From: Candidatus Lokiarchaeum ossiferum
GTDB lineage: Archaea; Asgardarchaeota; Lokiarchaeia; Sigyniarchaeales; Promethearchaeaceae
Direction of reading: 5' to 3'
Length of the DNA stretch: 32,000 nt
Assembly: GCA_025839675.1 (NCBI GenBank)
Contig: CP104013.1
Coordinates: 210,001 to 242,000 of the forward strand
The translations under genes were made by a program, and so were the position numbers. The notes under the pieces are model-generated. The model was not told the origin of the DNA, did no database searches, and was given only the letters and a program-made list of their open reading frames with translations. Positions 7,916-32,000 of the stretch are shown piece after piece; position 1 is the stretch's first letter, and each line of letters begins with the position of its first letter.

Positions 7916-7928
7916 TTCATATCCACCT

Positions 7929-9008: not shown

Positions 9009-9049
9009 TATAGGAATTTAATATTGATTTATTTGATTTGATCAATACA

Positions 9050-9093
9050 TGATGGAAAAAAAGCATTTTTAGTTTGAGCCATCACTCAAACTA
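9050..9093 (-). terminator. hairpin plus oligo-U downstream of mvhD
   Basis: A 9-bp inverted repeat TAGTTTGAG/CTCAAACTA (9070-9078 / 9085-9093) overlaps the mvhD stop codon. On the transcribed (minus) strand a U7 run follows it (plus-strand A7 at 9056-9062). Confidence 0.5.
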
Positions 9094-9564: not shown

Positions 9565-9565
9565 T

Positions 9566-11569: not shown

Positions 11570-11583
11570 AAGATCACCGTAAA

Positions 11584-12629: not shown

Positions 12630-14453
12630 ATGGAAGACGTTGGAAAACAGATTCAAAAGCTAAAGAAACTCGATGAATCCGCTGAAAATTTAATTCATCT
12701 TGGGAATCTTTACCTTAAGAAACAAGATAAACTCGAAGCCCGATATTATTTTCAACAAGCAATCGAAAAATATCCTAGTCATATCGAAGGATATATCAAA
12801 TTGGGTGAGTTTAGCTTAGAACAAAATAAACTTAAAGAAGCGAATAATCATTTTAGCAAAGCCTATGATATTGACAGTAAAAATGTCGAAGTGCTCATAG
12901 GATTGATTAAAACCCATTTGAAACGTGATGGATTATCGTTCGCTGATAGGTATTCAGAAAAAGCAATAAAAGTCGCTCCTGAAAATGTAGAAATCTTATT
13001 TTTAGCAGGATTAACGAAATTGAAACAACATAATATATTTTATGCTAAAAAATATCTAAATCTCGCTATGGAAAAGCAAGATGCTGAATTTATGCCATTT
13101 ATCCGATTTTATCTCGGTGTCTTGCTCGTAAAACAAGGACTTTTCGAAACCGCATTAGATCATTTCCGAGCAATTCAAGAAAGTGCACCATTCCAAAATA
13201 TTGATTTAAAAAATGGCCAAGCTTTACGAAACAATGTAGCTTACACCGAATTTCGTGTGGGCAATATTGAAAAAGCCGAAAAATTATTTGTTGAATTAAC
13301 CTCAACTGCAAAAGCAGTGGATCCTTATATTTGGGTCAATTTAGGGCAAATTTATTGGATACAAAACAAAGTAGAAGATGCGGTCAAAGCTTTGGAAACT
13401 GCTCATAAAATGGATTCTCGTTCATGGCCTTGGATGAGGGAAACTCGAGAGTATTTAGAAACTGGAGAAAAAGGATTGGCTCAGAAAATTAATGGACTTA
13501 TGAAAGAAAATCCCAATGGGTTAAACCTTGGAATGTATTTAGGGTGTGTTATTCCAAATCGTTATCCATTTATAGATGCCGCTTCTCGCCATGTGTTAGA
13601 TGCCATGAAAGTTGGTGTCGCAGAACTTGAAGGAGCAGGATGTTGTCCTGCTCCCGGTGTGTTTCGATCCTTCGATATTAACACTTGGATGACTTTAGGC
13701 GCTCGTAATATTACCATCGCTGAAGATATGAATCGGAATATGTGTATTATGTGTAATGGCTGTTTTGGAACGCTTAATGATATTAACACAGAACTGAAGG
13801 AAGATAAAACTAAACGAGATTTTGTTAATAAGCAACTTAAAGAGATTGGAAAAGAATTTAAAGGCACTGTTGATGCAGAACACCTTGTTTGGATTCTATT
13901 TAACGATATTGGGATTGAAAATATAAAGAAAAAAATAGTCCATAAATTGGGTTATAAAGTTGCCGTGCACTACGGTTGTCATATTATTAAACCAAGTCAC
14001 AATAAACCATGGGCCGATAGTTCAGAAACTCCTGAATTCATTGATAAATTGGTTGAAATTACCGGATGTCAATCTGTGCCCTATCGTGATAAACTTATGT
14101 GTTGTGGTGCAGGTGGTGGTCTTCGAGGGTCTGAAAAAGAAATTTCTTTGGATTTTACTCGAGATAAACTCGAATCCATTCGTAATGCTGGTGTGGATAT
14201 AATTATTGATTGTTGTCCTTTCTGTCATTTGCAATTAGATTTAGGTCAGATGGAAATCAATGGATTATTCAAAGATAAAATTTCCGCGCCCTTCAAAATT
14301 CCTGTTATTTATATCACCCAGCTATTAGGTCTTGCGATGGGTATGGATCCATATCGATTGGGGTTGCAAAAAACACCCGTTCCGAAAGGTCTTCCGCCTT
14401 TTACTCCCGTTGACTCCATTTTTACACAATTGAGTGACGACCTAGATCTCTAA
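12630..14453 (+). CDS. hdrB: TPR-repeat domain fused to heterodisulfide reductase subunit B (two CCG domains)
   Basis: Residues ~1-290 are TPR-like (LGNLYLKKQDKLEARYYFQQAIEKYPSHIEGYIKLGEF...). Residues ~300-607 carry two CCG-domain patterns: LGCVIPNRY...GAGCCPAPG...CNGCFG and HYGCHIIKP...MCCGAGGG...CCPFCHLQ. Confidence 0.88.
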   Translation: MEDVGKQIQKLKKLDESAENLIHLGNLYLKKQDKLEARYYFQQAIEKYPSHIEGYIKLGEFSLEQNKLKEANNHFSKAYDIDSKNVEVLIGLIKTHLKRDGLSFADRYSEKAIKVAPENVEILFLAGLTKLKQHNIFYAKKYLNLAMEKQDAEFMPFIRFYLGVLLVKQGLFETALDHFRAIQESAPFQNIDLKNGQALRNNVAYTEFRVGNIEKAEKLFVELTSTAKAVDPYIWVNLGQIYWIQNKVEDAVKALETAHKMDSRSWPWMRETREYLETGEKGLAQKINGLMKENPNGLNLGMYLGCVIPNRYPFIDAASRHVLDAMKVGVAELEGAGCCPAPGVFRSFDINTWMTLGARNITIAEDMNRNMCIMCNGCFGTLNDINTELKEDKTKRDFVNKQLKEIGKEFKGTVDAEHLVWILFNDIGIENIKKKIVHKLGYKVAVHYGCHIIKPSHNKPWADSSETPEFIDKLVEITGCQSVPYRDKLMCCGAGGGLRGSEKEISLDFTRDKLESIRNAGVDIIIDCCPFCHLQLDLGQMEINGLFKDKISAPFKIPVIYITQLLGLAMGMDPYRLGLQKTPVPKGLPPFTPVDSIFTQLSDDLDL

Positions 14454-14465
14454 ACTGATCCCCTC

Positions 14466-14496
14466 CATTCACTTATATTCAAGTGAATGCTTTTTT
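14466..14496 (+). terminator. hairpin plus T6 after the TPR-hdrB gene
   Basis: Arms CATTCACTT (14466-14474) and AAGTGAATG (14481-14489) are followed by TTTTTT (14491-14496). Confidence 0.5.
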
Positions 14497-14552
14497 AGAA
14501 ATGATAAATTTAACAAAATATTAGCACTTCGTAAAATAACGAGGAAATAACT

Positions 14553-15308
14553 ATGGCTTTCCCTAAACTATCTAAAGTAATTGACGAATCACAAATTAAA
14601 ATTGAGCAAAAATACTTAGTGAAAAAGTATGAGCTCATCTTAGATCGACTCAAATGTGTTGGATGTGGACAATGCAGTATTGTCTGTCCTAAAGACGCTA
14701 TTTTATTCGGTCCAGCTGCTGCTGTTTACGAAAATAAACCCAAAGATTTGAATGCCGCTGTTATTGATACAGTAGATGAAGAAAAATGTGTCTATTGCGG
14801 TACTTGCACCGTGTTCTGCCCCTTTGATGCCATTCATGTTTATGAAGATGGTGAAAAAATCAAAATGGAAGATTTGGATATTATCAAGCATAACTCCTTA
14901 CCAACCCTAAATGCAGAAATGGTGGCTTGTTCCAATTTAGGAAGAGATGCAAAAGTCTATTGGGAAGGAGAAATTGAAGTAAAATTCAAAATGCCAGAAG
15001 ATAAAACCGAATTCAAGCAAATCTATACTAATAAATGCCCAGGTGATTGTCACAAATGTGACCAAATTTGTCCTACTGATGCTATCAAGTTCCGCGAAAT
15101 GGAAGATGCATGGAAATCGAAAATTCTGATGGAAGTCGATGACGAAAAATGTATCAATTGTGGCGCTTGTGCTCTGGTCTGTCCTCAAGATTTTTATGCC
15201 GTTCGATGGACAAAAGTGAAAACTACTGGTGCTTACAACCAAATCTTCTGGGATCCAATCAAAGAAAAACTCTTGGGTCAAAGAGTGGTCTTTTCTAAAG
15301 AAGAATAA
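14553..15308 (+). CDS. polyferredoxin (4x CxxCxxCxxxCP)
   Basis: Motifs CVGCGQCSIVCP, CVYCGTCTVFCP, CPGDCHKCDQICP and CINCGACALVCP. Confidence 0.85.
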   Translation: MAFPKLSKVIDESQIKIEQKYLVKKYELILDRLKCVGCGQCSIVCPKDAILFGPAAAVYENKPKDLNAAVIDTVDEEKCVYCGTCTVFCPFDAIHVYEDGEKIKMEDLDIIKHNSLPTLNAEMVACSNLGRDAKVYWEGEIEVKFKMPEDKTEFKQIYTNKCPGDCHKCDQICPTDAIKFREMEDAWKSKILMEVDDEKCINCGACALVCPQDFYAVRWTKVKTTGAYNQIFWDPIKEKLLGQRVVFSKEE

Positions 15309-18308: not shown

Positions 18309-18401
18309 GGCTCCGAGCGGCCGGGGTGGTCCCTGGCGCCGGACTTCAAATCCGGTCTATCCTCACCCGATTGGGGGTTCGATTCCCCCTCAGAGCCGCC
18401 A
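18309..18401 (+). tRNA. tRNA-Sec (anticodon UCA), encoded CCA end
   Basis: Hand fold: acceptor GGCTCCGAG/CTCAGAGCC (9 bp, one C-A mismatch). D-stem GCCGGGG/CCCTGGC (7 bp) with a 4-nt loop TGGT. Anticodon stem GCCGGA/TCCGGT (6 bp) with loop CT-TCA-AA. Long variable region. T-arm GGGG-TTCGATT-CCCC. Discriminator G plus CCA. The acceptor and T stems sum to 13 bp (9/4 or 8/5), the tRNA-Sec hallmark. Confidence 0.8.
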
Positions 18402-18544: not shown

Positions 18545-20122
18545 CTAATTTTTATTAATCTCTATTTCCAAACACGATCCATGATAAATATTTTGATTAT
18601 AAATTTTAAAAGCTGAGCTTTTTTTCAGAGTAATTTCCCAATCCATATCTTGAATTATAATAATTATTTTTCCTGTAAATTGGGACAACTCTGTTTTTGT
18701 AGGAATTATGGATGTCATCATCGATATACTAAAAGCAAATTGTGTTCCTAAGAATTTTAGGCTAATTGAAAACTCTTTCAATCCGATTATAATTTTTCCT
18801 TCATAATCCTTATCAAAATCTATTGTTGAAATTGAAATTTTTGCTAATAAATTAGGAGGAAAGAGAGGAAATGAATCTCTTATATATTGGTAAGGAGCAG
18901 AAATAAAAGCTCTAATCGAATGATTATATTCTTCATTTTTTTCTTTATTTAAAGATAATCGCCCATATTTATCCATATCAAAAAAGTCATCAAGATGAAT
19001 TAGTTTGAAATATAATTTTAATAACCATTCTTTAAATTCAGTATATTTATTAATAATATCTTGAACATCATGTAATTTACGAGATCCTTTTATAATTTCA
19101 TCAATCGATAATCCTTTATGAAATAAATTATTCCGAGTAGAATGCATAAAATCAATTAATTCTTCATCATAATTTATTTCATCTAATTCAGAACACATAA
19201 GTTTTATTTGATCCTTTATTCTTGGGAATTTCCATAATTCTTTACATATTATTTCTGATATTTTTCTCGGCGAATACTCTTTATAAATAATATCCTGCGT
19301 TCTTATCATTCTTTCTACTTTTTCTGTTAACTTATTCTTTTTTTCTTTAGAAATTGTGATCAATTTCTTTTTTTCCCAGTTTTTAATATTACTCCTGATT
19401 GCCTTGGTAATTTCTTGAATTTTAACTAAACCTTTGTTGTTAGTTTTTAGATTTTTTTTTAGATATCTATGAATTTTTTTTTTTAGCTTTTCTAATTTTT
19501 TCTCACTTATCAAAGTGTTTTGTTGTTTATTCTTGAAATAGGTGCTTGTAATATGTTCTAAAGATAACCAACCTAAACCTATACTTTGATCGATAGTATT
19601 TTGATTAAAACTTTGAATCAAAATTCTCAAGCGAGATGAGTAATCATTATTCTGAAAAAATAAATTCCATAATTGGGAAATACAAAACCGAAATAATTGA
19701 GGTGTACCTATTAAATATGGGATTCGAGCATAAGGTTTGTAAAATTCAATTTGAGAAGGATAACTTTCTAAAATTCTTACTACATTGTTTCTTGAATTGA
19801 AATGAAAACAATTGGTAATTTGAATACGATAATTCATTAATAATAAACATAATTCGGTAAATGGTGATAATAAAGCATAGACCTCATCAATTATTTTTAT
19901 TTCTTCAGGAAGATCAACATCTAAATATAACCAAATGTTAGAATTTACGTCCATCTTAAATCTATCTAACACATTTTCAGAAACTGGATGAGAATCATAA
20001 TATGATTTCATTCGGATATTTTCTTCAGGAGCTAAAATAAATTTTTCAAATGCATCTAATTCAATTTTTATTGGGAAATTAAGATGAATACCTCTTATTT
20101 TTACTAAGATTCGATTAAGCAT
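18545..20122 (-). CDS. hypothetical 525-aa protein with a HEPN-type Rx4H motif (candidate RNase toxin/abortive-infection effector)
   Basis: Last gene of the integrase operon. Motif HSTRNNLFHKG (R330-x4-H335, nt 19118-19135) matches the HEPN RNxxxH signature. It lies in a helical region after a Lys-rich segment. No other motif recognised. Confidence 0.4.
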   Translation of the reverse strand: MLNRILVKIRGIHLNFPIKIELDAFEKFILAPEENIRMKSYYDSHPVSENVLDRFKMDVNSNIWLYLDVDLPEEIKIIDEVYALLSPFTELCLLLMNYRIQITNCFHFNSRNNVVRILESYPSQIEFYKPYARIPYLIGTPQLFRFCISQLWNLFFQNNDYSSRLRILIQSFNQNTIDQSIGLGWLSLEHITSTYFKNKQQNTLISEKKLEKLKKKIHRYLKKNLKTNNKGLVKIQEITKAIRSNIKNWEKKKLITISKEKKNKLTEKVERMIRTQDIIYKEYSPRKISEIICKELWKFPRIKDQIKLMCSELDEINYDEELIDFMHSTRNNLFHKGLSIDEIIKGSRKLHDVQDIINKYTEFKEWLLKLYFKLIHLDDFFDMDKYGRLSLNKEKNEEYNHSIRAFISAPYQYIRDSFPLFPPNLLAKISISTIDFDKDYEGKIIIGLKEFSISLKFLGTQFAFSISMMTSIIPTKTELSQFTGKIIIIIQDMDWEITLKKSSAFKIYNQNIYHGSCLEIEINKN

Positions 20123-20157
20123 AAAAAAAGAGATATTTATTTCTAATTAAGCTTTTC

Positions 20158-21120
20158 CTAATAAGGGAAAAATTGATCATAAAGCTTTAATCTTTCTTTC
20201 CCTGATTTATCATTCTGCGTATATCGTTTAAGATATCTTTGGGCATTCACCCCAGATGGTGTTTGATTCAATAGAATTGAGCGAATACCTGTATCTAGCA
20301 ACCCGTTTTCAACCCAATGGCTATTAATTGCATCTCGGAACAAGTGGGGATTTACGTGGCGTTTCGGGTAATCAGAGAGTATTTTTCTTACCGTTTTAGT
20401 TTCAATAGGAAAGAGAAATTCTTGATCAGGGTTCTCGAACTGTAATTGCACTAGATATGATTCCAAGTGCACTTTGAATTTGCGAGGGAAGAAATACCGA
20501 TTCCATCCGGTTGATCCTTCTGTCGGTTTCTCTTGTGTTTGAAACGTACGATTCTTCATGTCTATATTTTTAATTTTTATCGCACATAAACCACCAACAC
20601 GACATCCTGAATAAGCTAACATAGAAACTAGTACATAATCTCGCATGGATCGATTCTGATAAAAATCCTCAATCTCAAAAATGTCTTGAAATGAAAGAGC
20701 ATCTCGTTCGACTTTTCCAGCAGTATCCGTAAATTTGAAAAAATCGTTTGAGAAGATATAACTGTAATCATAATCAACTTGTTTTTTATAAGCTCGTGAT
20801 TCGCCTAAGAGATATTTAATGAAAGCACTTAAATTCATTCTGTATTTGATTTTCACTTTATCTCGCAAAATTCGAGATTCTAAATGCTTGAAAAACGTTT
20901 TGAATTGATCGGGAGTTATTTCTAATACTGAATTGACTTCAGGAAAGTTTTCTTGGAAATATTTAAACCCGTAATAGCAATTCTGACTTATATTTTTCTT
21001 TGTTGCAGGGGATCGTTTAGATACGATAAATTCCTCAAATTTTACCTGATCTTTCGGTAAGACAACATGAGGTGTTTTTGGAAACACTTTTCCTAGATTT
21101 ACATTCATTTGCGATACCAC
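20158..21120 (-). CDS. tyrosine recombinase / phage-type integrase
   Basis: 320 aa. Catalytic-type contexts are present: AYSGCRVGGLCAIKIKNID (Arg), PHLFRDAINSHW (HxxR) and AQRYLKRY (Tyr). It is too divergent to be the chromosomal XerA type. Confidence 0.8.
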   Translation of the reverse strand: MVSQMNVNLGKVFPKTPHVVLPKDQVKFEEFIVSKRSPATKKNISQNCYYGFKYFQENFPEVNSVLEITPDQFKTFFKHLESRILRDKVKIKYRMNLSAFIKYLLGESRAYKKQVDYDYSYIFSNDFFKFTDTAGKVERDALSFQDIFEIEDFYQNRSMRDYVLVSMLAYSGCRVGGLCAIKIKNIDMKNRTFQTQEKPTEGSTGWNRYFFPRKFKVHLESYLVQLQFENPDQEFLFPIETKTVRKILSDYPKRHVNPHLFRDAINSHWVENGLLDTGIRSILLNQTPSGVNAQRYLKRYTQNDKSGKERLKLYDQFFPY

Positions 21121-21602
21121 CTCTTTCGAGCAGATTGCTCGATTTTGCCCGTTTTTTGTAATGTCACTAAAGATTCTAAAACTTTTGCAGGACTTTCATT
21201 ACAATAGGTTGCAATTTGGTTTAAAAACAAACGTTTTTCACCAAGATTAGAAAGGATTTGTTCTTCTAATGAAATATTGGTTTCACTAGGCTTATTTGAA
21301 AGATTTTGCATTAACATACTCATGCTAAATTCTTTATCTTCCAATTTTGAAACCAATTCAGAAATTTTCCCTAATTCTGTTAAAACGTTTGAAGACTTAC
21401 CATTTGATTGTGTTCGATTGTAGATGACATTATCAACGCAAAACATTATGAATTCAGAAATATTTTGGTTGTGCTCAAGAGCTTTCGCCTTGATTTGGGC
21501 TTTTTTTCCTTTTGAGATTTTGATACCGATGAAATCATCCTTCACAAGAGAAGGATAATGATATTCAGTATTTCTCTTGCTTTCATCAATTTTAGTTGCC
21601 AT
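21105..21602 (-). CDS. RHH-like N-terminus plus wHTH-like C-terminus DNA-binding protein (166 aa)
   Basis: The track lists 21105-21704. That 5' extension overlaps an unlisted RHH gene in another frame. The ATG at 21602 (MATKIDESK) lies inside that gene's stop region, which suggests translational coupling. RHH-like segment IGIKISKGKKAQIKAKALEHNQNISEFIMFCVDNV. wHTH-like segment LFLNQIATYCNESPAKVLESLVTLQKTGKIEQ. It overlaps the integrase start by 16 nt. Confidence 0.6.
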   Translation of the reverse strand: MATKIDESKRNTEYHYPSLVKDDFIGIKISKGKKAQIKAKALEHNQNISEFIMFCVDNVIYNRTQSNGKSSNVLTELGKISELVSKLEDKEFSMSMLMQNLSNKPSETNISLEEQILSNLGEKRLFLNQIATYCNESPAKVLESLVTLQKTGKIEQSARKRWYRK

Positions 21603-21756
21603 TATTTTCTTCTCCGTGGTTTTCGAGGAATTCGTATAAGACTTCTCGCACAACATCCGAGAAGTAATCAGCTTTGCGATGCGGTTTGTGTTGTTTGAAT
21701 ACATCCCGAACGTTTTCTAAGAGATCTTCACTTAGTTTTAGTGTGATTTTTTTCAT
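21592..21756 (-). CDS. ribbon-helix-helix (CopG/Arc-like) protein, 54 aa, not in the ORF track
   Basis: Hand translation: MKKITLKLSEDLLENVRDVFKQHKPHRKADYFSDVVREVLYEFLENHGEENNGN. This is a classic RHH pattern of a beta strand and two helices. It is the first gene of the minus-strand integrase operon. Confidence 0.7.
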   Translation of the reverse strand: MKKITLKLSEDLLENVRDVFKQHKPHRKADYFSDVVREVLYEFLENHGEENNGN

Positions 21757-21874
21757 GTTAGTCTCTACTTACTCTATAAGAAGTGTGAGGTTAAAAAGTT
21801 ACTATAATAGTGGACAAATATTCTACCTTAGGGATAACAATAAAACTTATGATTACTCGATTGTTACTACAAAT
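21757..21874. promoter_or_regulatory. divergent promoter region between two RHH genes
   Basis: AT-rich 118-bp gap with TATA-like TTACTATAATAG. It also has a TTAGGGATA motif (21828-21836) resembling the GTAGGGTA repeats at 27.3-27.7 kb. Confidence 0.4.
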
Positions 21875-22093
21875 ATGGTCGATTATAAATCTATGAAGAT
21901 TCCTATTAAAATTTGGAATACATTTGATGCGTATATTAAAACTCACACCACTTTGAACGATTCTGCTACGACTATGATTCATGAAGTCATTAAAAACAAA
22001 GCAAAAGAACTTCTTCAAGAAATGATAAAGGAAATGGAGGAAAAAAAAGCGAATTGGGAAACAGTTAGAGACCAACTTGATTCAATATCCTAA
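21875..22093 (+). CDS. small RHH-like protein (72 aa)
   Basis: This is an internal ATG of track ORF 21674-22093. The upstream part of that ORF overlaps the minus-strand RHH gene and the promoter gap. Sequence: MVDYKSMKIPIKIWNTFDAYIKTH...TTMIHEVIKNKAKELL. Confidence 0.5.
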   Translation: MVDYKSMKIPIKIWNTFDAYIKTHTTLNDSATTMIHEVIKNKAKELLQEMIKEMEEKKANWETVRDQLDSIS

Positions 22094-22261
22094 AATTTTA
22101 ATAAGTGAATCCAAACCAAGTTTTTTTAACCTTTCTTTAACTTCTTGTTGCAATTTTAAAATATCTTGCTTTAATTTTACATACTGTTTATAATACATAT
22201 CTAATTCAGAATCTTCAATTGGATCATCATTTGCGGTTTTTTCTTGTGTGTCGAGTGCCAT
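22082..22261 (-). CDS. small coiled-coil protein (59 aa), not in the ORF track
   Basis: Hand translation: MALDTQEKTANDDPIEDSELDMYYKQYVKLKQDILKLQQEVKERLKKLGLDSLIKILGY. It is convergent with the preceding gene. Confidence 0.4.
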   Translation of the reverse strand: MALDTQEKTANDDPIEDSELDMYYKQYVKLKQDILKLQQEVKERLKKLGLDSLIKILGY

Positions 22262-22683
22262 ATTTTTTCCCTGTGTTAGTATTTCTTAGCGAAGTTCAAA
22301 GACACATAATAAATATGAAAGTTATGCAAATGAACTTCTATAGTATAATATTAAATAAGAATAATTTAGTATTAAAAGGCTCTAATTGTGAGATAACAAT
22401 ATCACTTGATTAATCCACTAACAAATATTTTAGATCCATAAAATTACGTGAAATTTTAGGTGTTTATGAATATCCATAAACATTTTAAAAAAGAATCTAA
22501 AAATAGGGACTAATTATTAGTCTAAAAATAACCGACATATAAAAATAGGTGATATTTTCTGATTTAAAATCCTTCAATTTTCTCAAACGGTTCTATTCGC
22601 AGTAAACTAAGCCAGAATTGAACAAAATTTTCAAATTTGTCGACAAAAAATGGCCATGTAGGATAGGTAGAGTTAAAAAAATC

Positions 22684-22728
22684 ATATATAAACCTATTGA
22701 TCAATTTATAATCCATAGGTTTATATAT
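22684..22728. repeat. perfect 14-bp inverted repeat with a 17-nt spacer
   Basis: ATATATAAACCTAT (22684-22697) and ATAGGTTTATATAT (22715-22728), inside a ~750-bp ORF-free region. Confidence 0.8.
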
Positions 22729-23013
22729 TTAATGAATACTGACTTCAATTTCAACAGAAGAAGGATGAAATCTATTTGAGGTCCGACTAATATTTTTTTA
22801 AGGTCTTTATCTCAATTCATTGATTTTTACAACTTCATAATGGGCTACTACAATCTTTTAGAATGAGTTCAATTTTTCCAATATGCCTATAAATTACTTA
22901 GAATTCATCCGATTCTTTTCTAAAAAACTGTACTGTGCCGTTACTTTATAAGGAAGATATTGTTTGAGTATCATAGTGTTCAAAATGGGTACTAAACTCA
23001 CAGTGGTGTAAAT

Positions 23014-23196
23014 ATGGAAACTCTAACTCATGTGCGAATAAATCGACGTATTGCTCAAGAAACAAGAGAATTAGGATATACTCTAACTCCCTACATTGAA
23101 ATATTATTGAGGGAGAATAACCAACTTACCAGAGAAATTCGCAAAAGGCGATTTGAATCAGCATTAGAAAAAGCTAACGACCTGCTTCGAATTTAA
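23014..23196 (+). CDS. ribbon-helix-helix (CopG-like) protein, 60 aa
   Basis: METLTHVRINRRIAQETRELGYTLTPYIEILLRENN... fits a beta strand plus two helices. It is the first gene of the replication module. Confidence 0.65.
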   Translation: METLTHVRINRRIAQETRELGYTLTPYIEILLRENNQLTREIRKRRFESALEKANDLLRI

Positions 23197-23212
23197 ATAG
23201 GGGAAAAAACTC

Positions 23213-23509
23213 ATGAACACCCAAAAATCAACCTTAAAACACAAATTCACTCAACCTCCCAAGATAATCTCTGAGCAATCTTTCAAACGAGTGGATGCAA
23301 TTTGGGATTTAGGAGAAAAAACGGATGTTCATGAGTTTCAACTTCTTCCAATCCAAAAAAAACTAGTCTATTTTTTGAATATTATAACTCCAAATACTGC
23401 GTTTTTTGCACGAATAAGTCAAAAAGAAAAAGAAGCATTCTCAAGGTCTCCAGCCCTGAGAATGGGACGAATGATCACAAAGAAAGAATCAGTAAGTATA
23501 TTTACTTAA
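23213..23509 (+). CDS. hypothetical protein (98 aa)
   Basis: ORF 17 nt downstream of the RHH gene, same strand. No motif recognised. Confidence 0.5.
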   Translation: MNTQKSTLKHKFTQPPKIISEQSFKRVDAIWDLGEKTDVHEFQLLPIQKKLVYFLNIITPNTAFFARISQKEKEAFSRSPALRMGRMITKKESVSIFT

Positions 23510-23615
23510 TTCTTCCTTAAAAATATTTGTTATTGAGCTATCAATAGCTCATATGCGATGTTGATGATCGTTTCTAATCACACACTTTCTCTTTTTGAGC
23601 ACCTAAATATACTAA

Positions 23616-23852
23616 GTGATCACAATGATACAACAAGAAACAATAAAAAATACGCAAGAATTAACTCAAAAGCCGAACGCAAAGAAGGGAAGTTCACGGC
23701 TCCTCTTCTTTGCTAACAAATACGCAACTTTTCATTTTATTCAACACAAAAACGCATCTGCTAATTATTTTAAATTAGCATGGGCTAATAAAGTATCGCA
23801 CACCTCATTTGTACCGTTTTTTGTTGCTATCGTCATTGGAGGAATGAATTAA
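23616..23852 (+). CDS. hypothetical protein (78 aa; ATG alternative at 23625)
   Basis: Its stop TAA (23850-23852) directly abuts the ATG of the replication gene. The C-terminus is hydrophobic (FVPFFVAIVIGGM). Confidence 0.5.
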   Translation: MITMIQQETIKNTQELTQKPNAKKGSSRLLFFANKYATFHFIQHKNASANYFKLAWANKVSHTSFVPFFVAIVIGGMN

Positions 23853-26800
23853 ATGAAATCCGAAAATCAAGCGATCAACACTTCGAATCCGTTTAAGAAG
23901 AAAAATACACCCCATCTTAATTTTGTAGTTGGTTTAAATGGATCAATCTATAAAAAAGAAGACACTTTAAGAGAAAAATACAAAGAATTCTTTGAGAAAT
24001 ACAATCCAAAAACAAATTTTGGTGATATTTGCTTACATCACAAAGAATACTTAAAAGAAATCCCCTATGAAGACCGAAAGTGGATTCGATTTAGCCGACA
24101 ATTAAAAATTTGGCGAATTATGACATGTGCGAGTTTTTCCGACGATAGATTACAATTTAGAACTGTTCCTGTCAGCAAAAATGGATTTATTTCTTGTGGA
24201 ACTCAACCTGAATATCAAGGACGATCTTTGGTATTTTTGGATTACGATGTGCCAAAAAATGAAGAAGTCACGTTTAATCTGGAAGCATTAGATAAAGCTT
24301 TAGGAGAATATGCTGATACTTTCACACAAGCAACTCCTACTGGAGGATTTCACAAAGGATATTATTTAAAAGAGCCGTATTTTGAGAGGGATGGAAAAAA
24401 GATAGATATCACTCCTGCAAATACTCAAGAAAAATCGCTTGAAGATCATACCGAATTAACTCAGAAACTAGGGTTGCAAGCAGTTGATATTAGAGGAAAA
24501 GGAGGCAAAATTTTTGCTTCAGGAACAAAATTTGTAGAACATGGGTTAAAAGAATATAAAATCGTGAATGCAAATCTTCCAATGGAAATAACCTTGCAGG
24601 AATTTAGTGAAATCACAGGACTATTCCTCCCAAAAGAATTATACGATCCATTTGAAAATCTGAATAAAGCTCAAAATCGGAAACGGGTAAGTAAATTGAA
24701 AAAGAAAACTTCTTCGCCAAATTCAATAAATTCCGATTCAAGCGAGATTCCTATGAAGATTCGAGAAGGGTTTAAGGATATATTAGAAGGAACAGTCGCT
24801 ATTGAAGATCTTAAACTCGAAAAATTTAAGATATTTTCAGCTCTCTTCCGGGAATGTCTAAATTGTGAAATGATACAAGAAGAAATCATTTCCTTTCTTG
24901 AACTGAACCAAGGTAGTTTTAAACGGTCAGAAACAGAAAATAATCTTAATTCACAAGAAAAATCTGATAATTGGGAAAAAAGACCAACTAAAGAGCATTA
25001 TTCTGAAATATTTTCAGAGTACCTAATCAAAAAAGCACAGACACAAATAAGTAAAATACTTGAAACACTTGAACCTGAGAATTTTACTGATTCCCAAATT
25101 TTAGAATTAATCCATTTAGCAGATACAACAGCAGATAGAATTAAACTTAAGAAAAAGCTGAAGGAAAAAATTGAGTTAACTAGTAAAGAATTCGATAAAT
25201 ATGTATCCTTATTTACAAAAAAACAAAACGAACTAAATGATAGGGCTAAGGAGGTTTACTATAAATCAAAAGAAGAATTAACTGTAAAATTTGACAAAGG
25301 AGATGATCGGAATAAATTCGACCAAGCTTTTAAACTAGAGAAATGCTCTCTTAAAGGGATTCACAGAGAAAAAGTAGGAAAGGAATTTGAATCCTTTTCC
25401 TTCATTGAAATTGTGGATGGATGTAAAAAATTCCAAGAGATCACCGCTCGTTTACGAAATCAAACTCAAAACTCTAATAGAATTTCGGTAGATACCCGAA
25501 ATAACATATTTGCACATGCTTTTAAAGATGTGTTATTGGAAAATGGACGGTTTATTTATGATATAGAAAACACACCTTATTTCTTTCGGAATAAAGAGAA
25601 GGATGTGTTAGAGATCGGGGTTAAAAAAGAACATGCTGAATTTTTAGCCTATATCTCAAAATGGGGGATAAATCATAAAAATAGGGAAGGAAACGTAATA
25701 ATTCAAGAACTGGTGAACTATTGTCTGAAGATGGGAGAAAAAGTTCAAACATATCAACAATCCCATTATGATAAGCTGAGAAAACAACTCTATATCTTTG
25801 ACGGAGTAAATCAAATCTTTCGACTTGATGGCAATCAGATAGTCAAAATTGATAATGGGGAAGATGGAGTGTTTTTCAGATCTGCATTCCGTAATAATCC
25901 TATAGAATTAGTAGATGAAATTGATGAAAAAAGGATTTTTTATGGGAAATTACGTGATGGAAAGTATCTATTTCAACGTATGACTTCATGTCGAATCAAT
26001 TTTAGTGAGACCGAACTATCTATTGAACAAAAGGCATTTCTTTACGATGTTTATTTTATTGGGATTATGTTTAGAGAGCTTTTCTCAGAACGTGCAGGTG
26101 CTCTTTTTATTGGAGATACAGGATCAGGAAAAACTTTAGCTCACTCCTATTTTAGCTTATTTTACACCAATGAAGAACCATTTTCACTTACCAAAGATCA
26201 GCGAGATTTTCGAACCACGTTGAATCATTTTGAATTGGCAAATTTTGAGAATGTAGATACAAATTATAATAATGAATTTGATGATATTATCGCTTCAACA
26301 ATAACAGGAAGTGGAAATACTCCCCTTAGGGAATTACATACCACAAAAAAATCAAGTATTCTCAAACCAAAGACTTGGATCATATTTGACGCACGAACGC
26401 CCCGTTTTTTGCGAGCAGACAATTTGAATCGATTTGTAATGTTCAAACTTGATTCATTTCAAAACTCTATTGGCGAATTCGAAGTTATACAAAGAGATGT
26501 ATTTAAGAAAGTATTTGAAGAGCCAGCTATTCTTAATGAGATTTGGAGCGAATTATTTGTGGTGTTCAATCAAATTATAAGAAAACTACAAAGCACTAAT
26601 AACTCTGAAATTAAGAAATATCCTTTAAGAATCGCTGAGTTTGCCCGGTTCATGGAAATCTGTGGGGATATTTTTGAAAAAGATGAGAAATTTGTGAAAA
26701 ATACTATGAGGGCTTTAGCGAAGGAACAACAAGAGATCGGAAATCAAGGTACCCCATTAGATACAATTTTTCAAAATCTTAAAGGTGAATGGGAAAAACA

Positions 26801-27254
26801 TTGCAATGGAAAATCATTCATTATTCCTGAACCAAAAAATCTTGAAAAAAAAATGTATTTCTCAGCAACAATATTACATGAACTCTGTCAGAAACATTTT
26901 CCTAGTGATTATCACTACAAATCAGCTCAAGCTTTTGGAAGAGCATTGAATGAACGAAAAGCATATTTATACAAAGAATATGGATTTAGAGTGTTCAAAA
27001 CCAAAAAGAAAACCCTTTATTATTTTGAAGATCGTGAGATTTACACAGGAATTGTCCAAAATATTATTGAAAAACTAAAAGCGAAAAGCAAATTCACTAT
27101 CTCAGCCAAAGAGATTGCAAAGGAAATTAGAGTAAATTCAATCAAACAAAGCGAAATATTAAATTACTTAAAAATATTATCCCAAGCTCAGATCAAACAA
27201 TTTAAGATAACCAATATGAAGGAAAACGGACAATTTTTAATTGTCCGAGCCTAA
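23853..27254 (+). CDS. replication protein: N-terminal PrimPol (archaeo-eukaryotic primase superfamily) fused to a C-terminal P-loop (SF3/D5-like) helicase
   Basis: PrimPol motifs: LVFLDYDV (DxD, D130 at 24240-24242), TPTGGFHKGYY (sxH) and AVDIRGKGGKIFASGT. Walker A GDTGSGKT (26112-26135). Walker-B-like KTWIIFDA. A long K/E-rich linker separates the two domains. Confidence 0.8.
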   Translation: MKSENQAINTSNPFKKKNTPHLNFVVGLNGSIYKKEDTLREKYKEFFEKYNPKTNFGDICLHHKEYLKEIPYEDRKWIRFSRQLKIWRIMTCASFSDDRLQFRTVPVSKNGFISCGTQPEYQGRSLVFLDYDVPKNEEVTFNLEALDKALGEYADTFTQATPTGGFHKGYYLKEPYFERDGKKIDITPANTQEKSLEDHTELTQKLGLQAVDIRGKGGKIFASGTKFVEHGLKEYKIVNANLPMEITLQEFSEITGLFLPKELYDPFENLNKAQNRKRVSKLKKKTSSPNSINSDSSEIPMKIREGFKDILEGTVAIEDLKLEKFKIFSALFRECLNCEMIQEEIISFLELNQGSFKRSETENNLNSQEKSDNWEKRPTKEHYSEIFSEYLIKKAQTQISKILETLEPENFTDSQILELIHLADTTADRIKLKKKLKEKIELTSKEFDKYVSLFTKKQNELNDRAKEVYYKSKEELTVKFDKGDDRNKFDQAFKLEKCSLKGIHREKVGKEFESFSFIEIVDGCKKFQEITARLRNQTQNSNRISVDTRNNIFAHAFKDVLLENGRFIYDIENTPYFFRNKEKDVLEIGVKKEHAEFLAYISKWGINHKNREGNVIIQELVNYCLKMGEKVQTYQQSHYDKLRKQLYIFDGVNQIFRLDGNQIVKIDNGEDGVFFRSAFRNNPIELVDEIDEKRIFYGKLRDGKYLFQRMTSCRINFSETELSIEQKAFLYDVYFIGIMFRELFSERAGALFIGDTGSGKTLAHSYFSLFYTNEEPFSLTKDQRDFRTTLNHFELANFENVDTNYNNEFDDIIASTITGSGNTPLRELHTTKKSSILKPKTWIIFDARTPRFLRADNLNRFVMFKLDSFQNSIGEFEVIQRDVFKKVFEEPAILNEIWSELFVVFNQIIRKLQSTNNSEIKKYPLRIAEFARFMEICGDIFEKDEKFVKNTMRALAKEQQEIGNQGTPLDTIFQNLKGEWEKHCNGKSFIIPEPKNLEKKMYFSATILHELCQKHFPSDYHYKSAQAFGRALNERKAYLYKEYGFRVFKTKKKTLYYFEDREIYTGIVQNIIEKLKAKSKFTISAKEIAKEIRVNSIKQSEILNYLKILSQAQIKQFKITNMKENGQFLIVRA

Positions 27255-27275
27255 TTTTTTACATTTTTTATCTTT

Positions 27276-27689
27276 GTAGGGTACTGATTAGAAGCTCTAT
27301 CAAACAATGTCGAAAAAAAGTGTTTTTTATACACAGAGGGAAATTATCGTAGAGATGAAAAACTACCCTAACATCTTCCTTTATAAATCCCTAACGTGCC
27401 AAATTGAATATATGCTTGTTTTAGTTCCGTTGAGGACAAAAAAAGAAAAAAAAAGTAGGGTAGTGCTTGTCAATATCTATTTTATAGCCATATATATTAT
27501 GGGTGTGGGTTGTTTCTACCATGTTTTTTCTACACGTATAGAAAATGACTTTAGTAGAACCCTACTGTTTTTCTTCTCTTTATCCAATACCACACAACAT
27601 AACTCATTAACTCTCACTTACTACCGTAGTCCTTTTTAAACAAAAATGCAGGGTATTGGGAGTGCTTTATATAGAAACAAGTAGGGTAC
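27276..27689. repeat. iteron-like cluster of GTAGGGTA motifs (candidate replication origin or operator array)
   Basis: GTAGGGTAC 27276-27284 (+). TTAGGGTAG on the minus strand (core 27364-27370). GTAGGGTAG 27455-27463 (+). GTAGGGTT on the minus strand (27558-27565). Degenerate GCAGGGTAT 27648-27656 (+). GTAGGGTAC 27681-27689 (+). Copies 3 and 6 share the extension GTAGGGTAnnnnTTGTCA. Confidence 0.75.
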
Positions 27690-27752
27690 GTTTGTCACTC
27701 TAATGACTGTGATATTTTATCAAGCAATCAATGAGAAAGAAAATGGTTAAAC

Positions 27753-28108
27753 TCAATTCATATCTCTTTTAACGTTCAATGAAAGACTTTCCTTCATAAT
27801 TTCATCCTTCTTCTTGGCTAAAATGAGAGTAACAGCATTGTGACACCAAGTACAAACGTTTTGAAATGGTTCAATTTTTAATGTGCCACACTCATGACAA
27901 ACAGCTCGACCGCATATTTCACACACCTATATTCGCCTTCATTCACAGAATTATAACAGTGACAGCAAGTTGGAATAATAATAAAGTCAGAATTTAAAAT
28001 AGCTTCCATAATGTAATAAAGACAACACAAATATTTAAATCCACGTTGTTTTTCGCCTATTTTCGTGCGATAAATTCTCAATTTGGATGAATTGCTTAGT
28101 GAAATCAC
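27753..28108 (-). pseudogene. Cys-rich zinc-finger gene split by a frameshift (76-aa ORF 27878-28108 plus 57-aa GTG ORF 27753-27926)
   Basis: The upstream ORF ends ...PTCCHCYNSVNEGEYRC.... A second frame reads VCEICGRAVCHECGTLKIEPFQNVCTWCHNAV.... Joining them near 27927-27935 gives a regular CxxC-x10-CxxC-x4-CxxC-x11-CxxC pattern. Confidence 0.45.
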
Positions 28109-28575
28109 TCCATTTTGATAATAAGTTCAATTTATTTTGCTTTCACACTTTTCTTGGGATGACCAAACCAAAATAATTTTTTGTGAGGGTGATCCCTCCT
28201 GCTAAGCTAAAAATACCTGCTGGCTGAAAAATGGATGTTTTGTTTCAATAATTAGGTACGCATTATCTTTTTTAGAATGATAACCAAAAAAAGAAGGAAG
28301 TACAGTGTAAATTCGAAAAGATGACCTTTAATACTCAGATGTTTAGGAATATCTATTATTTTTCTTTGTTTCTTTCAATTTCTCAATAAAAATTGCTGAT
28401 GGTTCAAGAAAGATTTCAAAATAGTCTTTTAAAAAATCATTTATATCAAAACCATTTTCTTCAACATGAAGGAATTTCAATTCTAATTCATTTATAGACA
28501 AGCATAAAATTGAATTTATCTGGATTTGAGATAGTAGTTTGAAATCAATAAAATTCTTATCTTTCAGGTAATTTG

Positions 28576-29124
28576 CTACCTTTTTTGGTGGAAACGTAGT
28601 ACAATATAATAAATAATTAAGCCAAATGCAAAAATCAAACCTCCTTTTATTAAAAGATCATATCCAAATTCATCCATCCAATCCTGTGCATAAATGAGAC
28701 CAAATAAATAAATTGTAATTATTGATACAAGTCCAATATTTATGATTAATCCTGAAAGATTTTTCTTTGTTTTGCCACTCGAAGCAATATATACAATCGC
28801 AATTATTAATTCCAGACTTAAAAATGCGAATAAACCAAGATAAAATTCAAAGAAGAACTGAATGACAATGAGAATCCCAAAAACTCTATCACACCATTCT
28901 AAATAAGAAAAAATACCCTCATTTGATTTTTCAATTTTGTATATTCCAAAGAAGCACATAAAAGAAAGTAAAATTGAGATGCTAAAACCTATTCCGAGAT
29001 ATAACGATTCATAACCCGGGAGAAAAAATTCTTGCGACTCTTTTTTTAGTAGTTCCCATAGAAATCCGGCAAATATAATATAATCAACAAAAGAAATAAT
29101 TATTTTTCTCACATTTTTGGACAT
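28576..29124 (-). CDS. polytopic membrane protein (about 5-6 TM helices), unknown function
   Basis: 182 aa, almost entirely hydrophobic helices (IIISFVDYIIFAGFLWELL; LYLGIGFSISILLSFMCFFGIY; GILIVIQFFFEFYLGLFAFLSLELIIAIVYI and others). Confidence 0.65.
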   Translation of the reverse strand: MSKNVRKIIISFVDYIIFAGFLWELLKKESQEFFLPGYESLYLGIGFSISILLSFMCFFGIYKIEKSNEGIFSYLEWCDRVFGILIVIQFFFEFYLGLFAFLSLELIIAIVYIASSGKTKKNLSGLIINIGLVSIITIYLFGLIYAQDWMDEFGYDLLIKGGLIFAFGLIIYYIVLRFHQKR

Positions 29125-29469
29125 GATTTTATTTCTAGTTTGGATTATTTATATGTGAATATACAATTATTTAATGAATAAATTCTAATTTTATTCGAAT
29201 GGAAAGAAAATTTGTAGATATTTCTTCAAACATGCAATATTTTTCAAGTCAAAGTCTTTAATATCCACTAGCTTCTATTTTCCAATTATGTGTTTTCATT
29301 TTCTACTTCATTACATCTCTCATATTCCATGAAATCTTGTGATTCACATGTTTGGAATATCACATGCAAATTCAGACAAATATCGTTAGTTTTGTTATCC
29401 ACTTTACTTTATCTAAATGATTAATGAGACAGTAAATGGATTTATATGATTTTATATCAGTAATAGTGC

Positions 29470-30138
29470 ATGGCGAAAATTTTTATCTCTCATAGTCAAC
29501 GAGATGTGAAAATAAAACAATTCTTCCATGAAATTTTTGCAAATACTAAGATACAAGCAAAATTTGAAGAATTTGATCAAGTTCTAGGACACAAAATCAA
29601 TTCAAACAAAATTGAAACGGATATTGTTTCATGCAATGCAGTTTTTATTTTATTGAGCGAGAATACAGATAATTTAAAACACACTCGGGATTGGATTGCG
29701 TGGGAATCTGGAAGTAGTAAAGAAAAGGAAATATGGTTATTTGTGCCCCAAAAAATTAATCGAAAATTGAATATAGTGATTCCAAAATTTAAACATTTAG
29801 TTCTTTTTGATTATACTGACTATTGGAAACAATATATTTATCAAATTGTTGAATCTTATGATAATTCAAACGTAATGGCTGTTTCAGCTGCAACAACAGG
29901 TATCGGTGCATTAATTGGTGGGACTTCGAGTGAAGATAATTCTTCAGATAGAACAATAATTGGAAGTGCAATTGGTTTATTAGGGGGATTAATCTTGGGA
30001 CAAGTGTTAATGACAAAAGCACCTAAAGGATGTAAGATTGAATGTTCCACTTGCTCTTCTATTTATACAATTCATACACGAGTACGTGAATTTAGATGTC
30101 CTGTATGCAATGCACAGCTTCATTTTATTGAAAATTAG
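29470..30138 (+). CDS. TIR-like (DUF1863/ThsB-like) domain protein with Gly-zipper TM segment(s) and a C-terminal zinc ribbon
   Basis: N-terminus KIFISHSQRD...AVFILLSENTDNLKHTRDWIAWESG...IWLFVPQ follows the TIR-like strand/helix pattern, with a W-x-x-E candidate catalytic Glu (E79, nt 29704-29706). Gly-zipper segments GIGALIGG and IIGSAIGLLGGLILGQVLM. Zinc ribbon CSTC-x17-CPVC. Confidence 0.5.
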   Translation: MAKIFISHSQRDVKIKQFFHEIFANTKIQAKFEEFDQVLGHKINSNKIETDIVSCNAVFILLSENTDNLKHTRDWIAWESGSSKEKEIWLFVPQKINRKLNIVIPKFKHLVLFDYTDYWKQYIYQIVESYDNSNVMAVSAATTGIGALIGGTSSEDNSSDRTIIGSAIGLLGGLILGQVLMTKAPKGCKIECSTCSSIYTIHTRVREFRCPVCNAQLHFIEN

Positions 30139-30267
30139 TAAAAAAACATTTCCACTAATAAAATCGTATTAAATATGCTTTTTTCCTTCACTTTTAGCCG
30201 TTATGTATTCCAATTCATTGAGTTTATCAGTACGTATATATTTAAGGCAGAGCGATAATTGAAGATC

Positions 30268-30540
30268 ATGAACAATAAGACAGAGAAAGAAACTTATTAT
30301 TCTGAAAAACTCCAAAATAGAGTTAAAGAATTAAAAAAAGCAAATAAAATGAAGGATCTCTTCTTTTTAGGCAAAGAAAGATTCGGAATGCGTACAGTTG
30401 AAAATTTATTCTGGCCTAATACATACCCTGAGCCGATTGATGAAGAGAAATGGATTAAATTGATGGATCAGATTCTCCATGAAGGATTATCTGCCGATGT
30501 CAATTTCGTTCCTTTTGATTTGAACAATCAAGATATTTAA
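30268..30540 (+). CDS. hypothetical protein (90 aa from the ATG; the track starts at TTG 30259)
   Basis: ORF with protein-like composition. No motif recognised. Confidence 0.45.
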   Translation: MNNKTEKETYYSEKLQNRVKELKKANKMKDLFFLGKERFGMRTVENLFWPNTYPEPIDEEKWIKLMDQILHEGLSADVNFVPFDLNNQDI

Positions 30541-30644
30541 TTATATCTCATGATTAGTAATAATTTCAGGATTAATGCAGTTAGCAATCTAAAAAACTCT
30601 CACCCTAACAAACTTTTTGAACAATTCGTTTGATTCCTCTAATT

Positions 30645-30794
30645 ATGAACACTCGAAAAGCAACAAAAAAGGAAATAGAATTTGAAAATGCTTCGTTTTT
30701 GAAGAAATTTTTTTTGACCTTAAAAGAAAACCCGATTTACCATGTACCACTAATCATAATTGTGTTCTACCTAGTATATGTTTCTATTTTTTAA
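30645..30794 (+). CDS. possible small membrane protein (49 aa), not in the ORF track
   Basis: MNTRKATKKEIEFENASFLKKFFLTLKENPIYHVPLIIIVFYLVYVSIF, with a single C-terminal hydrophobic helix. Confidence 0.25.
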   Translation: MNTRKATKKEIEFENASFLKKFFLTLKENPIYHVPLIIIVFYLVYVSIF

Positions 30795-30822
30795 GTTGAG
30801 ATTGAATTGGAGTGATAACTCA

Positions 30823-31212
30823 TCAATTTCTAATTTTACCCTCAGCAATAGCCTGAATGTCATCTAATCCCGACAAAAATCCATCAGCAACCCGAATCGA
30901 ATTGGGAATAGATTTCAAAATATCAGATTTAATCAAATCGAAATAGAGTTGGCGAAATTTCTCCCGAATTTCCTTATTGGCGAGATGAGGGTAACACTCT
31001 TGAAATGCACCTATATAAACCATTGATTCATGAGGTTTGACAATAGTATTCCGCAATTTCTTCAAATCTCGATTCGACAGGCCAGAATGGAATTGTTTCT
31101 TGAGCTGTTCGTTCACAATGTCGTTTGAATGGCCATCCACGAGTAATTTTAGTGCAATTCTCTTTTTTTGATCCCTGAGTTTTTTTTCCACAATTGGTAT
31201 TATCACGACCAA
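30823..31212 (-). CDS. hypothetical protein (129 aa, non-ATG start)
   Basis: The ORF has only TTG/GTG starts near its 5' end. A possible HTH-like segment is present (HSNDIVNEQLKKQFHSGLSNRDLKKLRN). No firm motif. Confidence 0.4.
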   Translation of the reverse strand: MVVIIPIVEKKLRDQKKRIALKLLVDGHSNDIVNEQLKKQFHSGLSNRDLKKLRNTIVKPHESMVYIGAFQECYPHLANKEIREKFRQLYFDLIKSDILKSIPNSIRVADGFLSGLDDIQAIAEGKIRN

Positions 31213-31342
31213 TTATTTAACACTTTTGTATTAGGGATCCAGAATTGGATCATTTGCAGATAATCAGAATTATTGTCAATTTGAATAAAAAGATAAAAAT
31301 ATTTATTTCTGAGAATTATACATATAATAAATGATAATATAA

Positions 31343-32000
31343 TGGGAACACTTTTCAGATTTCAGATTCCAAAAACATTCAAAAAAAATATTCAAGATTT
31401 GCTCTCAATATCTGAAAGCAATAGGAAGAAATTTTTAGAGCAAATTCAAATGGCTTCTCCCACTTTGGAGATCCAAGAACTAATTGATTGCTCAGAAAGT
31501 GAATTACAATATCCATCCCAAATGTTAATGTTCCTTTCAATGATTTACAGGATTTTTAAAGAATCGAAAACAAATTTGGGAGATTTTAGAATTTCTTTGG
31601 AAGATGCTATTAATGAGCTAGGGATATCTAAAGAACATGAAAAATACTCAGATATAATCAATTTTTTCATGGAAAGCATCCAACTTGATAATACTCTGGG
31701 GATTTCATCTAAAGCAAATGCAACAATGATAGATCATTCTCAAATAATAAGAAAAACGAGAATTTTAACTGATATTAGACCTCTTTTTCAAGATAATTTT
31801 GATGAATCAGTTAAAACAGGTGTCATTTATCATATGCTAAAATTAACCACTCGTCAGAATAAAATAGAGAAAAATCAATACATCGCATTTGATTTCGAGG
31901 ATTTGGTAAATTTAAAAAATACTATTGACAGAGCTTTAAGGAAAGAAAAAAATATTCGCCAATCACTTAATGATTGGATTATTTTAAGTTATTATGATGA
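31343..32000 (+). CDS. hypothetical protein, 5' part (continues beyond the right window edge)
   Basis: Open frame from the ATG at 31343 to the window end (219 codons, MGTLFRFQIPKTFKKNIQDLL...). It is not in the track because it has no stop in the window. No motif recognised. Confidence 0.55.

Follow-up and report, generated by a model that had tools for sequence, protein, structure and literature searches.

A putative stand-alone TIR NADase with a glycine-zipper hairpin and a predicted zinc ribbon in an accessory region of Candidatus Lokiarchaeum ossiferum

The window analysed here is a stretch of 32,000 nucleotides from Candidatus Lokiarchaeum ossiferum (contig CP104013.1, positions 210,001 to 242,000), and the gene in question (29470..30138, + strand) encodes a 222-residue protein composed of an N-terminal TIR domain, a glycine-zipper helical hairpin, and a predicted C-terminal zinc ribbon. 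The gene represents a real, conserved, and widespread protein family that had no prior annotation, and its product is most likely a stand-alone, single-gene, membrane-associated TIR NAD-cleaving enzyme (NADase) with a putative function in defense. A probability of about 0.5 is assigned to the whole mechanistic chain of a TIR NADase immune module, and the defense role of the family, taken by itself, is placed slightly above even odds. TIR domains are the common enzymatic core of immunity in bacteria, plants, and animals; the way in which they are switched on is their least understood property and differs between systems.

Architecture and conservation of the 222-residue protein

The open reading frame (ORF; protein P0001) begins with an ATG codon, and this start is backed by the N-terminus MAxIFISHS common to an alignment of 54 family sequences. 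The motifs that had been pointed out in an earlier, sequence-only reading of this DNA were all located at the residue numbers given there, namely, KIFISHSQRD (3-12), AVFILLSEN (57-65), DWIAWESG (74-81, with the Glu at 79), IWLFVP (88-93), GIGALIGG (144-151), and IIGSAIGLLGGLILG (163-177). A search of 5.8 billion protein clusters recovered 58 full-length relatives with 35-58% identity, nearly all of them 210-235 residues long and aligned over approximately 98% of the query. When 1.84 billion cluster representatives were searched exhaustively with a profile, 671 of them (clusters at 50% identity) were recovered at E<=1e-3, with 382 at <=1e-10 and 97 at <=1e-30. The residues F5, S7, H8, A57, H71-T-R-D-W75, E79, P105, C192, C195, R209, C210, and C213 are invariant in the 54-sequence alignment. 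Since there are 58 full-length homologues together with near-invariant residues, the features of the protein lie far beyond chance. No dedicated or whole-family model for it was found in Pfam, NCBIfam, PADLOC, or PHROGs, and no combination of a TIR domain with a glycine zipper or a zinc ribbon is described in a defense context in the literature searched, in keeping with the earlier view that the architecture was undescribed.

The TIR domain occupies residues 1-128 (29470..29853, + strand) and was predicted by AlphaFold to consist of five beta strands (3-8, 29-34, 57-61, 87-93, and 109-113) alternating with helices (13-24, 45-54, 70-82, and 117-128). The full-length model has a predicted local distance difference test score (pLDDT) of 88.1 and a predicted template-modelling score (pTM) of 0.82, and the TIR domain modelled alone has a pLDDT of 84.8. 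When the domain alone was submitted to Foldseek, approximately 40 of the 50 best PDB matches were TIR domains with query template-modelling scores (TMq) of 0.55-0.68. The top match was TIR-STING 9lmr (E 3.7e-4); others were the TIR-APAZ subunit of MapSPARTA 8spo (TMq 0.63), flax L6 (TMq 0.68), RPS4, SARM1, SpbK 9phb (TMq 0.64), AbTir, and ThsB. The rest of the 50 were other flavodoxin-like folds and nucleoside deoxyribosyltransferases. At the level of the family, the Pfam model TIR_2 was matched by 44 of the 54 members at E<=0.01 (best 2.6e-7), CAP12-PCTIR_TIR (the CAP12/Pycsar TIR) by 11, ThsB_TIR by seven, and TIR by four, and several homologues carry a precomputed PF13676 annotation. For the window protein itself, the best PADLOC match was ThsB (3e-05). 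The TIR assignment is convincing because the fold evidence, good rather than overwhelming, is taken together with the motifs; the N-terminal domain very probably has a TIR fold. The TIR-like domain proposed from the letters alone is thus borne out by both the fold and the family-level profiles.

The active-site motif H71-T-R-D-W-I-A-W-E79 lies in the alpha-C helix (29680..29706, + strand) and was defined by profile alignment to the AbTIR NADase, the PDB sequence that the family profile matched best, albeit weakly (E=0.04). In this alignment, FISHS falls on FISHAS and DWivWE on DWTNYE, so that R73-D74-W75...E79 correspond to K202-D203-W204...E208. The main catalytic residue of AbTir is E208 (the E208A mutant is inactive), W204 of helix alpha-C is required for the cyclisation of ADP-ribose (ADPR), and K202 touches the diphosphate (10.1101/2022.05.07.491051). 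Wider conservation was counted from 201 retrieved proteins aligned to the family hidden Markov model: E79 is kept in 188/195, W75 in 190/194, T72 in 187/194, F5 in 165/169, H8 in 166/171, and D12 in 170/173, and F5, S7, H8, and D12 are all conserved at >=95%. The suggestion that E79 is the catalytic Glu therefore gains from its alignment with E208 and its retention across the family, and a conserved Glu does stand at the WxxE position. As judged by alignment, the domain carries the complete signature of an NAD-cleaving active site (R73, W75, and E79), and catalytic competence as an NADase appears fairly likely on this conservation. Were the protein to lack NADase activity, some other reason would have to be sought for so strictly conserved a catalytic triad.

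The glycine-zipper hairpin spans residues 133-180 (29866..30009, + strand) with two helices (133-152 and 161-180) and a short polar loop, which were modelled by AlphaFold at a lower confidence (helix pLDDT 62-76). Throughout the family, the two segments are approximately 15 residues long, rich in Gly and Ala (18% Gly), with a mean hydropathy of 1.5 and 1.9, and are joined by a polar loop of 0-14 residues; both are present in 53 of the 54 members. Gly-zipper_YMGG (PF13441) was matched by 11/54 members (best 9.1e-7) and the "Glycine zipper 2TM" model (Rick_17kDa_Anti, PF05433) by 8/54 (best 7.3e-7), with the window protein itself remaining below the threshold for the glycine-zipper profile (17.1 vs 28.9 bits). 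The Kyte-Doolittle 19-residue threshold is passed by the second helix only. The earlier description of glycine-zipper transmembrane (TM) segments hence holds for the zipper, which is matched in several members, and not securely for the TM part, as the helices are only marginally hydrophobic, far less so than typical TM helices. The hairpin is probably membrane-associated or conditionally inserting rather than a secure two-pass anchor, with membrane association uncertain, and in either case, the TIR domain and the ribbon are on the same (cytoplasmic) side. In a sub-clade comprising P0102, P0105, P0106, P0119, P0138, and others, the hairpin is missing altogether and the TIR domain is linked to the ribbon by a short linker. 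This sub-clade indicates that the TIR domain and the ribbon are the conserved, ancestral or core unit of the family, in which the hairpin would be an insert.

The C-terminus is a predicted four-cysteine zinc ribbon (residues 188-218; 30031..30123, + strand) with two CxxC knuckles, modelled as four short beta strands at a pLDDT of 92-98. Its cysteines are close to invariant (C195, C210, and C213 each in 173/173 and C192 in 169/172), and Y199, H202, and an R209-C-P-x-C-N motif are also conserved. Members of the family matched the ribbon families Zn_ribbon_FGT1, Zn_ribbon_4, and the SprT ribbon. The presence of a ribbon, claimed from the sequence, is upheld by the invariant cysteines, the model, and these matches; its spacing had been given as CxxC-x17-CxxC and is in fact C192-x2-C195-x14-C210-x2-C213. 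A C-terminal profile used to look for the hairpin and ribbon on other N-terminal domains gave only truncated fragments of the same family, in a weak search with 8000 candidates scored. Two members, P0118 (572 residues) and P0201 (539 residues), carry an additional TIR-like domain fused at the C-terminus, and P0101, P0108, and P0113 have an unannotated N-terminal extension of approximately 130-190 residues.

Gene neighborhoods, distribution, and the tRNA-Sec setting

The surroundings of the family genes were compared by all-against-all clustering of 362 ORFs found within 3.5 kb in 41 loci. No partner family was recurrent, as the most frequent neighbor family occurred in only 5/41 loci, and a conserved partner gene of any kind was ruled out on this basis. 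The recurrent neighbor families include type ISP/IIG restriction-modification proteins, tyrosine integrases, TPR or Ser/Thr-kinase proteins, Schlafen/AlbA_2 proteins, and DNA methylases. A census of 139 flanking proteins with Pfam and PADLOC gave a heterogeneous picture in which methylases, kinases, integrases, and TPR proteins predominated, with PADLOC matches to mad2/mad6, MkoA, and PD-T4-6-like kinases. Genes tightly linked to the TIR gene in single loci encode DUF4062, Mrr_cat, MBL fold, ThiF (twice), and reverse transcriptase proteins, and toxin-antitoxin pairs and an OLD-TOPRIM protein lie near the TIR gene in loci L001, L004, and L005. Because no partner recurs and the neighbors are variable, the gene is regarded as a stand-alone gene in mobile, conflict-gene neighborhoods.

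The loci L004 (7348-9514) and L005 (7553-9611) have a common 83-residue gene upstream of the TIR gene, the N-terminus of which we take to be antitoxin-like in appearance, and the genes directly downstream of the TIR gene are unrelated to each other (252 and 261 residues, no Pfam match). Judging by this layout, the TIR gene seems to be flanked by a variable insertion slot. A ThiF/E1-like gene directly precedes the TIR family gene, in the same orientation, at two loci that are unrelated to each other (L016, 3186-4535; L021, 4838-5968), and this could reflect a connection to defense systems based on ubiquitin-like conjugation.

A motif-restricted scan of 185,579 genomes, one per species, confirmed 47 family loci. 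The bacterial hosts include Acidobacteriota (many), Bacteroidota, Ignavibacteria, Nitrospira, Chloroflexota, WOR-3, Elusimicrobia, Gemmatimonadota, Planctomycetota, and Thermotogae, and among the archaeal hosts are Methanoregula, Methanophagales, Njordarchaeum, and others, with an Asgard relative at L011. The family is rare, sporadic, and inter-domain; it is mostly bacterial and not specifically archaeal. The archaeal accessory region in which the gene had been placed carries an integrase. Among 2.9 million viral contigs (IMG/VR), a single contig encodes a family member, and viral carriage was rejected as the general home of the family.

In the window, the tRNA-Sec gene (18309..18401, + strand; ARAGORN; Rfam RF01852, 57.6 bits) forms a sharp border between conserved metabolic genes on its left and lower-GC, orphan-rich DNA on its right (18545-32000); the guanine-plus-cytosine (GC) content is about 32%, which together with a weak Loki-CTERM hint fits a Lokiarchaeon. 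The left part contains an anaerobic electron-transfer gene cluster upstream of tRNA-Sec (Pfam; 5473-12186 on the - strand and 12630-15308 on the + strand) with aldehyde:ferredoxin oxidoreductase, an HdrA-like flavoprotein, MvhD/FlpD, HdrB/C-like CCG and Fer4 proteins, and a TPR-CCG fusion, and a hybrid histidine kinase and an aldo-keto reductase were also annotated by Pfam left of 18.3 kb. The right part begins with an unannotated ORF of 525 residues (18545-20122, - strand), followed by a tyrosine recombinase/integrase (20158..21120, - strand; Pfam Phage_integrase 8.5e-9; PHROG integrase 2.7e-15) and a 1133-residue protein with a weak N-terminal Prim-Pol match (23853-27254, + strand; E=0.0046). 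The 1133-residue protein had no PHROG match and no relatives in IMG/VR viral contigs, and it possibly serves an undescribed mobile element of archaea as its replication protein. A cysteine-rich ORF of 57 residues (MCEICGRAVCHECG...CTWCHNAV; 27753-27926, - strand) with weak zinc-ribbon/FYVE-like matches lies approximately 650 bp past the ORF of the 182-residue membrane protein discussed below and approximately 1.5 kb upstream of the TIR gene. Downstream of the TIR gene, the window holds only a 93-residue orphan ORF.

The tRNA-Sec layout resembles a classical selC-type island insertion site. A search for a direct repeat (att) of the tRNA-Sec 3' end found none, either within the window or over the following 1.7 kb to about position 33685, and it is plausible but unproven that the region right of tRNA-Sec is an integrated element. 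A Logan contig of 15,324 bp from an independent public assembly (SRR22273277; L054) is identical to the window over 12,531 bp (19470-32000) and extends 1.7 kb beyond it, where three further genes (223, 132, and 139 residues) are located. By arithmetic, its start falls within the tRNA-Sec gene, which could be an assembly break at the border of the element or merely the end of a fragment.

Proposed mechanism and competing explanations

The TIR NADases AbTir and SARM1 are inactive as monomers and active on clustering, with an active site that spans two domains (10.1101/2022.05.07.491051). In SpbK, a TIR NADase encoded by a single gene of a mobile element, the TIR clustering that activates the enzyme is driven by a phage portal protein (PMC12847820). 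For the 222-residue protein, it is proposed that the hairpin would hold the protein at the membrane, on its cytoplasmic face, and favor side-by-side self-association, with the TIR domains held apart or latched in the resting state. A trigger sensed by the ribbon, or a perturbation of the membrane during virus entry or assembly, would cause the molecules to cluster; the ribbon, which accompanies the TIR domain also in members that have lost the hairpin, may either sense the trigger or latch the TIR domain. The clustered TIR domains would then form head-to-tail assemblies with composite active sites, and E79-dependent cleavage of NAD+ to ADPR and/or a cyclic ADPR isomer would lead to the arrest of the infected cell (abortive infection). 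No second gene would be needed, and the window copy lies in the integrase-bearing accessory region by tRNA-Sec.

Several points weigh against this proposal. The E-values of the fold search are modest, 3.7e-4 at best, and the window protein alone falls below the Pfam gathering cut-offs (TIR_2 16.8 vs 28 bits, E=0.0097; ThsB_TIR 15.5 vs 21.2 bits, E=0.024). The BB-loop glycine, which is essential in AbTir, is found in only 125/185 members; this loop varies between members and was modelled at low pLDDT (residues 39-41). The case for NADase activity is drawn from motif conservation. The hairpin is absent from the sub-clade named above, and its helices have insertion energies of +5.6 and +3.2 kcal/mol, against about -1 for the TM helices of the neighboring membrane protein, these being rough translocon-scale sums. 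The role given to the ribbon is a guess, and the trigger is hypothetical, whereas SpbK has an established one, the phage portal protein. Furthermore, many of the PADLOC matches among the neighbors are to generic kinase or methylase domains, and the association with defense islands is descriptive, without statistical control.

In a stronger form of the proposal, which is doubtful, approximately 220 residues would make up a one-protein immune module that combines sensing by the ribbon, membrane assembly by the zipper, and killing by the TIR NADase, possibly with membrane damage in addition. Another explanation makes the hairpin the killer: a zipper-driven pore or ring would permeabilize the membrane, with the TIR domain mainly providing oligomerization or the trigger; alternatively, both parts of the protein might act as effectors. 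Zippers of this kind are commonly seen in toxins that form pores and in lipoproteins that form rings, and the glycine-zipper matches of the family fit with this, as do the marginal hydrophobicity, the Gly/Ala-rich composition, and the very short loop of the hairpin, which are of the conditional rather than the co-translational insertion type. However, the near-invariant catalytic Glu, Trp, and Arg point to the TIR domain as an enzyme and not a scaffold, and the sub-clade that keeps the TIR domain and ribbon without the hairpin implies that the hairpin is dispensable for the core function; this explanation is unlikely.

A non-immune role is likewise improbable. It might consist of the decapping of NAD-capped RNA, local NAD turnover at the membrane, or a stress response, with mobility arising by chance. 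NAD-RNA decapping is reported for bacterial and archaeal TIR proteins (PMC10937652). Zinc ribbons are frequent nucleic-acid binders, and several family loci are situated among ordinary metabolic genes. Against it stand the sporadic distribution, with only 47 confirmed loci in the motif-restricted genome scan, the repeated adjacency to integrases, restriction-modification, and toxin-antitoxin genes, and the lone viral contig, which fits a host-side conflict gene.

It is unlikely that the protein is a ThsB-like producer of a cyclic ADPR-type messenger whose effector is encoded elsewhere or in the variable neighboring slot. The PADLOC match to ThsB and the tightly linked, co-directional downstream gene in many loci speak for such a producer, and so does the aromatic W75 (98% conserved) at the position of W204, a hallmark of cyclase-type TIRs (10.1101/2022.05.07.491051). 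No ThsA-like or other partner recurs, however; the linked downstream genes are mutually unrelated, and the window offers only the 93-residue orphan at this place.

The TIR gene had also been read as divergently paired with a gene for a polytopic membrane protein (28576..29124, - strand; ATG start), and the two ORFs are indeed divergent and separated by 345 bp, with five TM segments predicted by hydropathy in the 182-residue product where approximately 5-6 had been expected. Such a pair could form a two-gene system, e.g., a sensor with a membrane effector. The 182-residue protein had no homologue besides itself in the 5.8 billion clusters, and in a BLAST comparison, neither it nor any other neighboring ORF of the window was present in any of 53 family-encoding loci. 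In a homology-free search, a protein with >=3 TM segments lay within 1 kb of the TIR gene in only 4/39 loci, and a divergent upstream polytopic neighbor occurred in the window only. The closest homologue of the TIR protein (58% identity, L001) has entirely different gene neighbors. The pairing is not sustained: the membrane protein is an unrelated, locus-specific orphan and no partner of the TIR gene, and the two-gene arrangement can be regarded as effectively refuted as a conserved system.

If the stronger, doubtful form of the proposal is true, the family would represent a minimal membrane-organized TIR "signalosome" that is distinct from Thoeris, CBASS/Pycsar effectors, SPARTA, and SpbK and has hosts in more than 10 bacterial phyla as well as among Asgard-type and methanogen-related archaea. 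A complete TIR signature beside two modules new to TIR, with no partner gene, would provide an unusually simple system for studies of activation, with one gene and only a few invariant residues as targets for mutation. As a broad family common to bacteria and archaea, Asgard relatives included, it also has a bearing on surveys of immune systems in archaea and on the history of TIR defense. New domain partners of TIR are not surprising alone; the value lies in a broad, minimal, apparently self-sufficient, inter-domain family.

Comparison with known systems

The glycine zipper 2TM and YMGG families (PF05433 and PF13441) share with the hairpin a pair of short helices rich in Gly and Ala with a short loop between them, as reflected by the significant matches in 8-11 of the 54 members. 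They are mostly small outer-membrane lipoproteins of Gram-negative bacteria. The hairpin of the 222-residue family, in contrast, lies inside the protein, inserted between two domains of the cytoplasmic type, and it is also found in archaea.

The CBASS effectors Cap14/Cap15, the Pycsar effector PycTM, and TIR-STING are similar in joining an oligomerizing immune domain to a membrane or TIR effector, and TIR-STING 9lmr was the top fold match. They differ in being effectors that depend on a cyclase encoded by another gene and on a sensor domain that binds nucleotides, neither of which was found here. Thoeris ThsB is likewise a small TIR-like protein; it gave the best PADLOC match, and ThsB structures are among the fold matches. 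However, ThsB lacks the hairpin and the ribbon, and the 222-residue family lacks a ThsA partner or any conserved neighbor. Membership in Thoeris was rejected, as no adjacent ThsA effector (SIR2/SLOG or Macro/TM) and no neighbor family in more than 5/41 loci was detected, and the neighbors in the window are orphan ORFs.

AbTir and other TIR_2-type NADases (PF13676) resemble the family in the FISHS beta-A and K/R-D-W-x3-E alpha-C motifs, which align, and in the conserved catalytic Glu and cyclisation Trp. AbTir differs in its N-terminal coiled coil and in being soluble, the BB-loop glycine is not strictly conserved in the 222-residue family, and the match is weak (E=0.04), with the window protein below the Pfam cut-off.

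The likeness to SpbK of Bacillus subtilis ICEBs1 extends to the TIR domain with NADase residues, the lack of a dedicated partner gene, carriage by an integrated mobile element, which is plausible for the window gene, and the fold (9phb, TMq 0.64), and SpbK is activated by TIR clustering (PMC12847820). SpbK has neither the glycine-zipper hairpin nor the zinc ribbon, and no sequence relationship was detected outside the TIR fold. The features of the single-gene TIR class are found in the family: no partner is conserved, the genes lie in mobile or defense-type regions, and the window has an integrase and a tRNA border. It is proposed that the 222-residue protein may work like the SpbK-type single-gene TIR NADases, with a TIR_2 active-site motif of the AbTir type.

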